Below, one piece after another: positions 2,311 through 10,095 of a stretch of DNA of 12,294 nt (position 1 is the first letter of the stretch; each line of letters opens with the position of its first letter). The notes beneath the pieces were generated by a model. It was not told where the DNA came from, ran no database searches, and worked only from the letters and a program-made list of their open reading frames with translations. The DNA is from an uncultured archaeon. Lineage in GTDB: Archaea > Iainarchaeota > Iainarchaeia > Iainarchaeales > GCA-2688035. Location of the stretch: assembly GCA_964354805.1 (NCBI GenBank), contig CAYHBD010000011.1, positions 1-12,294 of the forward strand. Reading direction: 5' to 3'. The translations under genes and the position numbers were made by a program.

Positions 2311-2422
2311 AAGCCTTTCTTTTTAGAAAAAAGAAAGCCTTGTGAAAGAAAAACATTTGCTTCGCAAAGAGCCTTCGGCACAGCTTTTCTTTTGGAAAAA
2401 GAAAAGCTGTATCAAAAGAAAA
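2311..2422 (+). repeat. Composite intergenic repeat: degenerate 43-bp element, two triloop mini-hairpins, full 43-bp element
   Basis: Degenerate copy 2311-2352; TTTGC-TTC-GCAAA 2356-2368; GCC-TTC-GGC 2371-2379; ACAGCTTTTCTTTT-GGA-AAAAGAAAAGCTGT-ATCAAAAGAAAA 2380-2422. Confidence 0.85.
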
Positions 2423-3808: not shown

Positions 3809-4894
3809 CTAAAATCGTTGGAATCTTTTTCCCAGTTGCTCGAACTTTCCTTCAATTATTGCTTGCCTCGCCTGCTTCACCAAATTCGCAGTAAAGTGCA
3901 AATTGTGCAGCGATAAAAGCATTTTGCTGTTCTCTTCCTTCACTTTGAACAAATGGTGCAGGTATGCCCTGCTGTGCTGCGTGCAGACAGGGCAGGCGCA
4001 TTTAGCATCCAACGGCCTGAAATCAAATTTGAACGCGCTCTTGCACACATCAATGTTTCCCTTTTCAGTGAAAGCCAGGCCGTGCCTTGCAGTCCTTGTC
4101 GGAAAACAGCTGTCAAAAACATCAATGCCGAGGGCAATGCACTGCAGCAATTCCAGGGGCGAGCCAACGCCCATGAGATAGCGGGGCTTTTCTTCCAGGA
4201 TTATTTTATTGCTCAATGAAACCATGCGCAGCATTTTCTGCTTTGGCTCTCCAATGCACAGTCCGCCCAAAGCAATTCCGTCAAAATCAATTGAACTGAT
4301 TTGTTCAGCGCTTTTCCTCCTGAGCTTTTCAATCGTTCCCCCTTGGCAAATTCCAAACAAAAGCTGCTTTTTTGCTTTGTGCGCTTCCCTGCACCGCTTT
4401 GCCCATTGGAATGTTCTTGCAGCGCTTTCAGCAATTCTTTTTGCATTGCTGCCGTGCAATGGAACATCATCAAGGCACATTGCGACATCAGAGCCAAGGG
4501 CATTTTGTATTTCAATGCATTTCTCAGAGCTGAGAAAGCTGCGGCTTTTGTCAAAAGGGTTTCTGAAAAAAACCCCGTTATCGTTTATTTTTAACAAAAA
4601 TTCTTCACTTAGCACCTGGAAGCCGCCTGAGTCAGTGAAAATTCCTTTGCTCCAGTTCATGAAGCTATGCAGTCCGCCTGCTTTTTTTATTACAGCCAAG
4701 CCTGGCTGCAGGGAGAGCAGGTAAGCGTTTGCAATAAAGCACTGCACGCCAGCTGCCCTGCATTCATCAAGCGAAATCCATTTCAACGCCGCTTTTGTTG
4801 CAACAGGCATGAAAAGAGGAGTTTGAATTGTGCCGTGCGCTGTGTGCAGCAGCCCTGCCCTTGCTTTTCCGTCTGTTGCAATTATTTTGAACAC
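3809..4894 (-). CDS. tgt: tRNA-guanine transglycosylase, bacterial/eukaryotic (queuosine, G34) type
   Basis: ARAG..HG.IQTPLFMPVAT, GGLHSFMNW, TDSGGFQV, QGG, GGLCIGE, KPRYLMGVG, FDSCFPTRTARHG, zinc site CACPVC...RAYLHHL...LHNL. At 361 aa it has no C-terminal PUA extension of the archaeosine TGT. GTG start. Confidence 0.93.
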   Translation of the reverse strand: MFKIIATDGKARAGLLHTAHGTIQTPLFMPVATKAALKWISLDECRAAGVQCFIANAYLLSLQPGLAVIKKAGGLHSFMNWSKGIFTDSGGFQVLSEEFLLKINDNGVFFRNPFDKSRSFLSSEKCIEIQNALGSDVAMCLDDVPLHGSNAKRIAESAARTFQWAKRCREAHKAKKQLLFGICQGGTIEKLRRKSAEQISSIDFDGIALGGLCIGEPKQKMLRMVSLSNKIILEEKPRYLMGVGSPLELLQCIALGIDVFDSCFPTRTARHGLAFTEKGNIDVCKSAFKFDFRPLDAKCACPVCTQHSRAYLHHLFKVKEENSKMLLSLHNLHFTANLVKQARQAIIEGKFEQLGKRFQRF

Positions 4895-4927: not shown

Positions 4928-4970
4928 TTTTCTTTTGGTACAGCTTTTCTTTTCCCAAAAGAAAAGGTGT
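4928..4970 (-). repeat. 43-bp hairpin repeat copy 1 nt downstream of tRNA-Val
   Basis: Minus strand ACACCTTTTCTTTT-GGG-AAAAGAAAAGCTGT-ACCAAAAGAAAA, near-identical to 2380-2422 and 8191-8233. Confidence 0.88.
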
Positions 4971-4971
4971 A

Positions 4972-5043
4972 TGGACCTGGCCGGAATCGAACCGGCTACC
5001 TTATGCGTGTGAAGCATACGTCATACCAATAGACCACAGGTCC
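4972..5043 (-). tRNA. tRNA-Val(CAC), intronless, CCA not encoded
   Basis: GGACCTG-TG-GTCTATTGGTATGAC-G-TATGC-TTCACAC-GCATA-AGGTA-GCCGG-TTCGATT-CCGGC-CAGGTCC-A folds as a full cloverleaf with anticodon CAC and discriminator A. Confidence 0.96.
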
Positions 5044-7439: not shown

Positions 7440-7823
7440 TTAAATGATTTCCACGTTCTTCATGCCCTTGAAGTGCTTGTCCATTGTTTTTAGTTCAGAG
7501 TTGGTTAACTCAGCTGTGGCCTTGATGATTGAGTCGGCCAATGAAAGGCCTGTTTCAATGCTGATTTCTGCCGCATGAACGGCGATTCTTTCGTCCAATG
7601 CAACAATTTCTGTCAAATCAACTATGTGGGCAATGGCCTGGTTTGCGCTCTGCTCGTTCAGGTCTTTTTTTATTTTTTTGTATACCTCAAACAGGACTAT
7701 TGCAGCTGTCTTATAGGTTTCTTTGTTGGCGCTTTGGATTATTTCCGCAACCCTGCCTGTTTTCTGGCCCTTTGAAAAGTACTCAATCCAAAGGCTGCTG
7801 TCAACCAAAACGTTCACTTTCAT
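7440..7823 (-). CDS. vapC: Type II TA toxin, VapC/PIN-domain ribonuclease
   Basis: [32 protein letters not shown]: all four PIN acidic residues are present. Overlaps the upstream antitoxin. Confidence 0.92.
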
Positions 7824-8013
7824 CCCTCAACCCTTTTGCCGAAACACCTTTCGCCATTCCGGCAGCAGACTTAATGCTCCCTATTTTTACAATCTCAATA
7901 CTGTTGCCCTTTTCAAGCAGGACAAGCTTTTGGCCGGGTTTCAAGCCAAGGTCTTCCCTAGTTTTTTTCGGAATAACTATCTGGAATTTTTCAGACAATG
8001 TCACAGTTTGCAT
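7801..8013 (-). CDS. vapB: Type II TA antitoxin, AbrB/MazE/SpoVT family
   Basis: TLSEKFQIVIPKKTREDLGLKPGQKL AbrB signature; SD GGTGA at 8020-8024; 23-nt overlap with vapC. Confidence 0.9.
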   Translation of the reverse strand: MQTVTLSEKFQIVIPKKTREDLGLKPGQKLVLLEKGNSIEIVKIGSIKSAAGMAKGVSAKGLRDESERFG

Positions 8014-8105: not shown

Positions 8106-8233
8106 AATTGCGAAGCAATTAGCCCTTTTCTTTTGGTACAGCTTTTCCAGCGAAGCTGTTTTCTTTTAATACACTTTTTCTCGCGAAGCCTTTTCTTTTG
8201 GTACAGCTTTTCTTTTTCTAAAAGAAAAGCTGT
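8106..8233 (-). repeat. Tandem composite repeat: three units of [GCGAAGC mini-hairpin + TTTTCTTTTGGTACAGCTTTTC], ending in a full 43-bp element fused to the tRNA-Leu 3' end
   Basis: GCGAAGC at 8110, 8150 and 8183; 22-mers at 8126-8147, 8159-8180 (degenerate) and 8191-8212; full element 8191-8233 with a perfect 14-bp stem. Confidence 0.88.
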
Positions 8234-8315
8234 GCGGGAGGGAGGACTCGCACCTCCGAAGCCGCTAGGGCATCAGGTCCTAAACCTGACGGAATTGCTG
8301 CTATCCGACTCCCGC
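8233..8315 (-). tRNA. tRNA-Leu(TAG), intronless, long variable arm, CCA not encoded
   Basis: GCGGGAG-TC-GGATAGCAGCAATTCC-G-TCAGG-TTTAGGA-CCTGA-TGCCCTAGCGGCTTC-GGAGG-TGCGAGT-CCTCC-CTCCCGC-A; all stems pair; anticodon TAG. Confidence 0.93.
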
Positions 8316-8696: not shown

Positions 8697-8930
8697 TCAG
8701 GTTCTCGCCATTGCAAGCACGTGCAGCTTGTAGTAGCCTTTGCTGAACGTGAAATAACTTGCAAAAATCATCAGGGGCGTTGCAGCGTAGTATGCCAGGG
8801 CAATTAGCATTGAGCCGTTTGCCTGAATGAAGAATCCCTGCACAAGTGTAACAATGCTGAAGCCGACCAGTATGAAAGTGGAAATGAAATACAATGTTGC
8901 AAACAGATTGTATTCGACTTTTGGTTTCAA
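8697..8930 (-). CDS. Small two-TM membrane protein, unknown function
   Basis: Two hydrophobic segments; TTG start preceded by a GGTGA SD (8938-8942) and TTTAAATA boxes. Confidence 0.7.
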   Translation of the reverse strand: MKPKVEYNLFATLYFISTFILVGFSIVTLVQGFFIQANGSMLIALAYYAATPLMIFASYFTFSKGYYKLHVLAMART

Positions 8931-9180
8931 GCGCGTTTCACCAATTTAAATTAATGCATTGCCGTATTTAAAATTTCAAGGCTTGTTTTCAATTGCTGTT
9001 TCGCTGATTTAATTAGTGCAATCCAGTATTTAAAATTTTTCTATAAAAATTAAAAAGGGTTTTTTGTCGAAATGCCCGTTTTTCGCTTGCTCCACAGTTG
9101 CATTTAAATAAGTTTTCCTGCGCTTTAAATATTAAATTTGCTTTAAAATAGCGTTTAAAGGCAAAAGGGGGCGTTTTAAA

Positions 9181-9446: not shown

Positions 9447-9956
9447 TTACGGCGTAATCCTTTCAATAGTGTAATAGTTGATGTCATTCTCCGAATCAAC
9501 TACCGCAACAATAAGCATTGTCCTGATGTTTCCGCTCAATCTGACCATCCTGCTAAAGCCAGGCATTGAAAGCCTTTCCTCTTGGGCTGCAACATGCACA
9601 ACCCACTGCGTATGAGCTTGGCCAGGCTTTTTTCCCCTGGGATAAACCCTGAAATCAAAGCCGAATTTGAAACCGGTTTTAACGCAAAAGCCCCTATCCC
9701 TCAAATCCCTGAAAACAATGAATTTGGTGTAAAAATCCTTTTCCTTTTTCTCGGCATACTGGAGCAAAGCCTTTTTTGAAAGCTTTTTTCCATTGCTGCC
9801 CTTCAATGTGATGCTTTTCTTCTCAAGCAGATACAATGCTTCCTTTAAATCCAGAACAAATTCTCGTTCTGTCCTCTCGCCAAAGCCCTTCTGCTGCAGC
9901 TGGCTCTCTATGCGCTTTTTTTCCACAATCACCTTGTTTTGAACCAAAATGCACAT
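9447..9956 (-). CDS. endA: tRNA-intron endonuclease (single-unit, alpha4-size, 169 aa)
   Basis: LDLKEALYLLEK, VFRDLRDRGFCVKTGFKFGFDFRVY, QAH, AVVDSENDINYY. GGGTGA SD (9962-9967) supports ATG 9956 over 10004. Confidence 0.93.
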   Translation of the reverse strand: MCILVQNKVIVEKKRIESQLQQKGFGERTEREFVLDLKEALYLLEKKSITLKGSNGKKLSKKALLQYAEKKEKDFYTKFIVFRDLRDRGFCVKTGFKFGFDFRVYPRGKKPGQAHTQWVVHVAAQEERLSMPGFSRMVRLSGNIRTMLIVAVVDSENDINYYTIERITP

Positions 9957-10095
9957 TTCGCTCACCCTGCAAACAAATTTATGCAATTGCCTTGTTTTGA
10001 ACAAAAAAACCTGTTTTTGCCTGCTGCAAAAGAATTTATATAATTAAACAATACAATATAGTAAACATTTAAAACAAAACCTTTGTGATTGAAAA

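Follow-up and report, generated by a model that had tools for sequence, protein, structure and literature searches.

The 43-nt hairpin sequence that recurs beside the tRNA genes of this archaeal contig is one subfamily of a group of short composite repeats, which are spread across the genome and across the order to which it belongs. On the whole, one small module is found at every kind of site where a precursor RNA is cut, and it carries a clear structural signature, namely a hairpin of a pyrimidine and a purine arm followed by a third tract that mirrors the purine arm. The preliminary description, made from a single contig, saw a dispersed repeat family with a strong association, fixed in orientation, with tRNA 3' ends, and this is borne out genome-wide. 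The explanation that we favour, at somewhat better than even chances, is that a triplex-capable repeat has proliferated and has been retained just outside mature RNA, its first arm probably being a leaky archaeal terminator. What appears to be new is the existence of intrastrand-triplex dispersed repeats in an A/T-rich, clamped, archaeal form tied to RNA processing sites, while the architecture seems to be of a kind already known, that of the bacterial class II intrastrand-triplex repeats. Our literature search found no published description of such repeats in these archaea.

According to this explanation, the repeat would proliferate either as a non-autonomous element or by copy-and-paste recombination, and would persist only where the RNA is discarded or untranslated. 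At the 3' ends of genes, the first arm would put two U4 tracts 5-14 nt past the mature end or the stop codon, and a copy there would most likely serve as a leaky terminator, since two such tracts suffice, according to published work, for binding by the archaeal termination factor aCPSF1. In introns, the hairpin would give a helix flanking the bulge of the 5' splice site. The triplex fold, probably at the DNA level, would be needed for either the spread of the repeat or the arrest of a polymerase. The repeat may thus illustrate the origin of gene-end signals and of new tRNA introns.

The repeat family in the genome and its relatives

The window, i.e., the whole stretch of DNA analysed here, is an entire contig of 12.3 kb (C11) in a 1.38-Mb assembly of 49 contigs (G000), with 44% G+C and 88.5% completeness, in which archaeal 16S, 23S and RNase P RNA are identified by Rfam. 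With introns allowed, ARAGORN detects 44 tRNA genes in this genome, 25 of them interrupted, versus only 21 genes without the intron search, and Rfam reports 31. For annotation, this means that about half of the tRNA genes of the genome are interrupted and are overlooked by simple tRNA scans.

Overall, subfamily A, to which the 43-nt sequence belongs, has 17 copies on 11 contigs of the genome according to a fuzzy search, and several of them are identical 43-mers at unrelated loci. A 39-nt pattern with at most 3 mismatches has 16 matches in the genome versus 1 for the reversed control, and it is present in 15 of 41 related genomes, which include several genera and families of the order. The preliminary description was prepared to reduce the repeat to an ordinary bidirectional terminator if it were confined to the window, or if it had no tRNA association and were fixed in position across relatives; copies do lie beyond the window, and their positions vary across relatives. 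A scan based on the stem detects 64 hairpins of the same build in the genome, each with an outer clamp of 4-5 bp and an inner homopyrimidine/homopurine tract of 8-12 bp around a loop of 3-6 nt (14 bp of hairpin in the description of the family). Among them, 47 also have a linker of 2-3 nt (AYC, GKG or GCG) and a matching third tract, the purine tail. The clamps are of the types ACAGC/GCTGT, ACACC/GCTGT with a C.C mismatch, AAGCC/GCCTT with the same mismatch, and AAGCC/GGCTT. The sequence of clamp and linker is common to several genera and is more conserved than the neighbouring proteins. In an alignment of 19 copies, the stem has 14 pairs with 93% of the cells paired and compensatory changes at 4 pairs, a result equalled by none of 500 shuffles. 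The 14-bp stem had been called nearly invariant; however, its fourth position is G-C, A-T, C-G or T-A, or the recurring C.C mismatch.

Hairpins of the AAGCC subfamily that have no tail are also present in this genome, at C16:138607, C16:62825, C30:59585 and C10:20051, and in each case a conserved motif of about 20 nt, starting GGCACAATGCC, comes next; together, hairpin and motif may constitute a different composite element.

Copies in the window

The copies in the window and the two tRNA genes beside them are as follows.

8233..8315, minus strand: tRNA-Leu(TAG), found by ARAGORN and Rfam; its discriminator A (8233) is common to the hairpin
8191..8233, minus strand: full copy of subfamily A, docked on tRNA-Leu(TAG) on the same strand; in minus-strand reading, clamp 8233-8229, pyrimidine arm T4CT4 8228-8220, loop 8219-8217, purine arm A4GA4 8216-8208, clamp 8207-8203, linker ACC 8202-8200, mirror tail A4GA4 8199-8191
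8106..8190, minus strand: trailer array with a period of 33 nt, in which two armless units are interleaved with three mini-hairpins of the GC-TTC-GC type
8159-8180 and 8126-8147, minus strand: the armless units, each a remnant of the purine arm with clamp, linker and tail, the pyrimidine arm missing
8181-8190, 8148-8158 and 8106-8120, minus strand: the GC-TTC-GC mini-hairpins of the array
4972..5043, minus strand: tRNA-Val(CAC), found by ARAGORN and Rfam
4928..4970, minus strand: full copy of subfamily A on the strand of tRNA-Val(CAC), with one T between it and the tRNA end (4972); C.C mismatch in the clamp; 33 nt upstream of the TGT start codon
2380..2422, plus strand: full copy of subfamily A, located between convergent genes; the copy that follows tRNA-Ala at C38:2343 has the same sequence
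2356..2379, plus strand: two mini-hairpins of the GC-TTC-GC type (2356-2368 and 2371-2379), joining the B and A copies
2311..2353, plus strand: full copy of the sister subfamily B; clamp AAGCC/GCCTT with C.C mismatch, arms T3CT5/A5GA3, linker GT

The positions first given for the three full copies, 2380-2422(+), 4928-4970(-) and 8191-8233(-), hold, and these copies are 93-100% alike. The docking on both tRNA genes in the same relative orientation likewise stands, with the tRNA-Leu copy sharing the discriminator A and the tRNA-Val copy beginning after one extra T. The sequence at 2311 had been taken for a degenerate copy; it is instead a full member of the sister subfamily: its tail G-A3GA5 is the exact mirror of its purine arm A5GA3, and C2:29864 and C16:27400 have copies that match it from hairpin through linker to tail. 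The half copies reported at 8126-8147 and 8159-8180 are correctly placed but are in fact armless units in the 33-nt tandem array. Folded as DNA, the hairpin has -13.1 kcal/mol with z = -6.4. The mini-hairpins represent a second repeat module with an invariant GC-TTC-GC core and co-varying outer stems, which is present at many loci genome-wide; they come after about half of the triplex-type copies and alternate with armless units in arrays.

A mirror tail and a predicted intrastrand triplex

The main structural clue, overlooked in the preliminary description, lies in the 12-nt tail: it repeats the purine arm in mirror order, and the two vary together. An intrastrand triplex or H-DNA requires a homopurine mirror repeat adjoining its Watson-Crick partner. 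This genome has 7 asymmetric tract types, and in every one of them the tail reverses the purine arm, the pairs of arm and tail being A5GA3 and A3GA5, A4GA3 and A3GA4, A7GA4 and A4GA7, A5GA4 and A4GA6, A3GA4 and A4GA3, A2GA4 and A4GA2, and A6GA3 and A2GA6. Automatic scoring of the tails in this genome gives 17 that are better as mirror, 7 that are better as direct repeat and 19 ties, where the 7 are near-symmetric tracts with a difference of 1 nt, plus C16:53473, whose linker offset was mis-set and which is a mirror by eye. For loci from other genera, which had been fetched for other reasons, the same scoring gives 13 mirror, 0 direct and 6 ties, new tract types included. Within one alignment, columns 10/24/39 and 11/23/40 co-vary. 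Moreover, in 16 of 17 spacer types the mirror halves are separated by a stretch in which a Watson-Crick pair encloses a 2-nt turn (C-TT-G or T-GT-A), and position 2 of the linker co-varies with position 2 of the clamp (C with G/T, G with C).

A fold-back triplex fits the repeat because the third tract mirrors the purine arm in the asymmetric types, and the 2-nt turn together with the covariation of linker and clamp fits a tail folding back onto the purine arm. A helix switch, in which the tail would pair with the pyrimidine arm, would predict a direct repeat; it is rejected, as the asymmetric tails are parallel- and not antiparallel-complementary to that arm, and it is possible, as an alternative fold, only in the symmetric A4GA4 subfamily. 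Judged from the tract order, the repeat strand can fold as a class II intrastrand triplex made of pyrimidine arm, purine arm and a reverse-Hoogsteen purine strand, and the complementary strand can fold as its pyrimidine-motif counterpart, class IV, in the terminology of Holder et al. (PMC4666352). Two points weigh against our explanation at this place: the triplex is deduced from covariation only, A-rich purine-motif triplexes being weak, and a linker of 2-3 nt has to span 4-5 clamp pairs, or else the clamp opens.

Intrastrand-triplex repeats are known in bacteria as PIT, BoxC and TM-ECO (Hoyne 2000; Holder 2015, PMC4666352), where the function of PIT/BoxC is unknown and no terminator or promoter activity is found in E. 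coli (PMC4666352). Like PIT/BoxC, the archaeal repeat is dispersed, multi-copy and mostly extragenic, with the class II order of domains, conserved stems and variable loops, and with a complementary strand that yields the pyrimidine-motif class. Both components of a class II element are present, i.e., a hairpin of complementary pyrimidine and purine domains and a 3' mirror purine domain. Unlike those repeats, it is A/T-rich and not G/C-rich: its tracts have one or two G/C positions, and it bears no sequence similarity to BoxC/TM-ECO with their G/C-rich stems. It also adds a clamp of 4-5 bp with a recurring C.C mismatch, docks where mature stable RNAs end and where tRNA introns begin, and is accompanied by the GC-TTC-GC mini-hairpins, often in arrays. 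By this comparison of sequence and architecture, the repeat is best regarded as an analogue, not a homologue, of BoxC/TM-ECO.

Location of the copies

Among the 44 tRNA genes, 12 have a hairpin that starts at -2 to +1 nt of the tRNA 3' end on the tRNA strand, and a 13th is cut by a contig end. Three tRNA 5' ends are adjoined by inverted copies (C25:7603, C2:29760 and C28:55339), and 11 tRNA introns contain a copy, with 9 copies beginning at intron base 0-2. On the rRNA contig, where Rfam places the ends of 16S, 23S and RNase P RNA at 2021, 6148 and 6669, hairpins start at 2022, 6149 and 6671, corresponding to offsets of 0, 0 and 1. The 5S rRNA and SRP RNA of this genome have no copy, a point that also counts against the explanation that we favour. 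In all RNA-associated copies the hairpin adjoins the mature sequence and the tail is distal, and roughly one third of the stable-RNA genes have a docked copy. For protein-coding genes, about 7 long ORFs have a copy within a few bases of the stop codon, and 13 of 15 copies beside such genes, as read by eye, are sense relative to the nearer gene 3' end. A dedicated tRNA 3' trailer signal, as had been proposed, is therefore too narrow: the module also comes after 16S, 23S and RNase P RNA and after stop codons, including one inside an operon, and inverted copies come before tRNAs while others start tRNA introns. In tRNAs that have no copy, T5 or longer is often found at the equivalent place (13 of 44). 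In addition, several tRNAs of this genome without a triplex-type copy carry another hairpin at +1.

Relation to archaeal transcription termination

Archaeal genes may end at oligo-U terminators of aCPSF1, also named FttA (PMC8716108; PMC2253867). Two U4 tracts are the least that aCPSF1 binds, with a termination efficiency of only about 50% at such sites, and hairpins are not needed for archaeal termination (PMC8716108). After tRNA-Leu, tRNA-Val and others, T4CT4 of the repeat is located at +5 to +14, presenting two U4 tracts, and the opposite direction has four. Similar to aCPSF1 terminators, the repeat thus places two U4 tracts at most 15 nt past the gene end in a genome that encodes aCPSF1, and those terminators are themselves leaky; on this likeness, the first arm probably acts as a leaky archaeal terminator. 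Both aCPSF1 and RNase Z are encoded in the genome, so that a special 3'-end signal due to the loss of either is rejected.

Unlike aCPSF1 terminators, the U tracts of the repeat are inside a stable hairpin, and copies are present in introns and inside an operon. Termination would be harmful at such places, which include 11 tRNA introns (with T4CT4, some with T6) and one operon junction, where the copy is 3 nt upstream of a Shine-Dalgarno sequence. With copies inside these needed tRNAs and inside the operon, the repeat cannot be a strong terminator, and leakiness would reconcile the terminator reading with the intron and operon copies. The terminator function, on the other hand, leaves the hairpin and the co-varying mirror tail unexplained.

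Copies in tRNA introns

The predicted fold of pre-tRNA-Glu, encoded at C10:64296-64450, consists of the anticodon stem, a 4-bp helix, 3 unpaired nt and then the repeat hairpin, so that in this model the hairpin can serve as the outer helix of the bulge-helix-bulge motif. Transposition of tRNA introns has been inferred for Thermoproteales (Fujishima 2010, as summarised in PMC4033280). According to that summary, similar intron sequences are found in several tRNA species of one lineage there and their presence varies among relatives, as is the case here. Unlike those introns, the module in our genome is also present in 3' trailers, 5' leaders, flanks of rRNA and RNase P RNA and after protein-coding genes, has a defined three-tract architecture, and occupies introns at the canonical 37/38 position.

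As a tentative extension, to which we give clearly less than an even chance, the module of stable-RNA 3' ends could also be the raw material of new tRNA introns, and the same three-stranded DNA fold could drive both copying and polymerase arrest. An intron would be born when a trailer-type triplex hairpin is copied in after nucleotide 37, or is left there at the fusion of half genes. The hairpin copied in would supply the helix beside the bulge of the 5' splice site, and a short segment complementary to the anticodon would then suffice for removal by the splicing endonuclease. If true, this would offer a concrete and testable route for the birth of archaeal introns and a first functional role for intrastrand triplex repeats, touching on two open questions, the gain of tRNA introns in archaea and the function of intrastrand triplex repeats.

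Variation among relatives

For tRNA-Leu(TAG), only 1 of 15 orthologues, that of the present genome, has a trailer copy. The nearest relative, with a tRNA of 96% identity, shares the upstream promoter side, and the homology stops exactly at the tRNA 3' end; because synteny with this relative breaks at that point, the case is a synteny break rather than a clean insertion. For tRNA-Val(CAC), 2 of 7 orthologues have a copy, and the second of them (G015) has a different tract with a perfect mirror tail. Two junctions between conserved protein genes carry a copy in this genome: the one at C9:56285 has none in G016 and G011, and at the second, the operon junction at C16:77681, the same two genes are 3 nt apart in G009. 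The sequences on either side of these sites have diverged too far for insertion boundaries or target-site duplications to be made out. The intron of tRNA-Glu(UUC) built from the module is present in this genome (G000), G009 and G011 and absent in G004, with tract A3GA4 and tail A4GA3 in G011 and A4GA4 in this genome.

Some sites look conserved and older rather than mobile, to judge from the orthologous sequences. At the 5' flank of tRNA-Cys, both this genome (G000) and G006 have a copy, with a different tract, and this conserved-looking site stands against our explanation. Of 19 relatives, nearly all have a hairpin that begins 0-6 nt past the end of 16S, which likewise stands against our explanation. 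Its sequences are unrelated across families; it is of the pyrimidine/purine type in close kin only, and no reliable mirror tail is seen there. With the same tRNA having a copy in some relatives and none in others, the family supplies defined sequences for terminator, splicing-endonuclease and triplex tests.

Alternative explanations

Several readings at the RNA level have to be weighed. One would take the repeat as a purely functional, vertically inherited cis-signal for the formation of stable-RNA 3' ends by termination or processing and not as a mobile or proliferating repeat, the similarity of copies being convergence on one shape bound by a protein or enzyme. The exact docking in fixed orientation, 0-1 nt from the ends of tRNA, 16S, 23S and RNase P RNA, would be expected for such a signal, as would the near-constant hairpin after 16S in the 19 relatives and a clamp and linker that outconserve the neighbouring proteins across several genera. 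We nevertheless judge it unlikely, since presence at tRNAs is not conserved (see the orthologues of tRNA-Leu and tRNA-Val above), identical 43-mers are found at unrelated loci, copies are also present in introns, 5' leaders, operon junctions and between convergent protein genes, and 5S and SRP RNA do without one. A quite improbable reading is an RNA triple helix (U.A-U) of the ENE/MALAT1 type, formed by the tail-first strand and capping the 3' end of an RNA that is cut off beside the tRNA. In MALAT1 and MEN-beta, an ENE triple helix lies beside a tRNA-like RNase P site. The corresponding order of U tract, linker, U tract, loop and A tract does occur on the strand opposite the tRNA, and for the 5'-flank copies at C25:7603, C2:29760 and C28:55339 it occurs on the tRNA strand itself; these three set the module of two U tracts and an A tract directly against the tRNA 5' end and stop precisely where RNase P cuts, an arrangement also seen in MALAT1-mascRNA. 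But they are the minority orientation: in about 26 of 29 RNA-associated copies the transcribed strand carries the other order, with one U tract and two A tracts, a poor RNA triplex, and the tRNA-Val gene of the window has no converging gene whose transcript could be capped. Unlike MALAT1/MEN-beta, moreover, the context here is prokaryotic. Least credible of all is an ordinary bidirectional intrinsic terminator of the bacterial type, a hairpin and then a U run, which is practically excluded because the stem has no U run after it. Its attraction lies in the intergenic copies, partly between convergent genes (2311-2422), in the T-rich arms and in one armless unit that gives a hairpin and then T4CT4 on the plus strand (8138-8167); the hairpin of full copies, however, is followed by an A tract in sense or an RNA gene in antisense, the U tracts are inside or before the stem, and the mirror-tail covariation and the intron and operon locations would be left unexplained, quite apart from hairpins being unnecessary for archaeal termination (PMC8716108).

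As for how the repeat spreads, it had been suggested that a REP- or MITE-like element is mobilised by an enzyme of the RAYT or IS200 type encoded elsewhere. Such a REP/BIME- or MITE-like element, dependent on a HUH (Y1) transposase of the RAYT or IS200/IS605 type acting in trans, we consider improbable. The resemblance is real in that both are short, dispersed extragenic palindromes, often arrayed near gene 3' ends, and no target-site duplication is seen, in line with what this family of transposases would leave; the genome also has two Y1 transposase genes (C35:572-1015, minus strand, and C13:1331-1786, plus strand). Yet the end hairpins of both Y1 genes are their own, of the ordinary IS200 type, and bear no relation to the repeat, and copies flank neither gene. 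For the single tract type counted across the 41 genomes, which are 72-99% complete, copies and Y1 genes show no positive association: no Y1 match was obtained in G006, G001 and G009, which have 6-8 copies and are 72-88% complete, while G004, G023 and G020 have 5-7 Y1 matches and no copy of the subfamily A tract type. To our knowledge, REPs also have no third, mirror tract. A route by reverse transcriptase is rejected, as the genome has no RVT_1 match, and no TnpB is found in it. What counts against the proliferating triplex-capable repeat that we favour is that neither a mobilising enzyme nor a target motif nor a target-site duplication came to light, the 5-7 nt preceding the copies having no consensus. 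As a separate observation, the two IS200-type Y1 genes have homologous left-end hairpins, whose stems co-vary between the two.

Other features of the window

Between the stop of a Myb-like gene and the subfamily B copy there is an 80-nt C-rich stretch (2231-2310), with no Rfam match at the gathering threshold; given that gene or RNA ends are the usual docking sites of the copies, it might be a small RNA that has escaped recognition. The TGT gene (3809-4894, minus strand) encodes a tRNA-guanine transglycosylase of the bacterial (queuine) type, whose best relatives in genome collections are bacterial, with 36-45% identity, which suggests that the archaeon acquired the gene horizontally. Directly downstream of the tRNA-Leu trailer array is a PIN-domain (VapC-like) gene with a small upstream ORF (7440-8013, minus strand). 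The same contig also encodes a tRNA-splicing endonuclease of 185 aa with N- and C-terminal EndA domains (9447-10004, minus strand), and upstream of its gene, between small ORFs, there are two 56-nt tandem units (8921-9038), which are 71% alike and each contain TTTAAA-type boxes.
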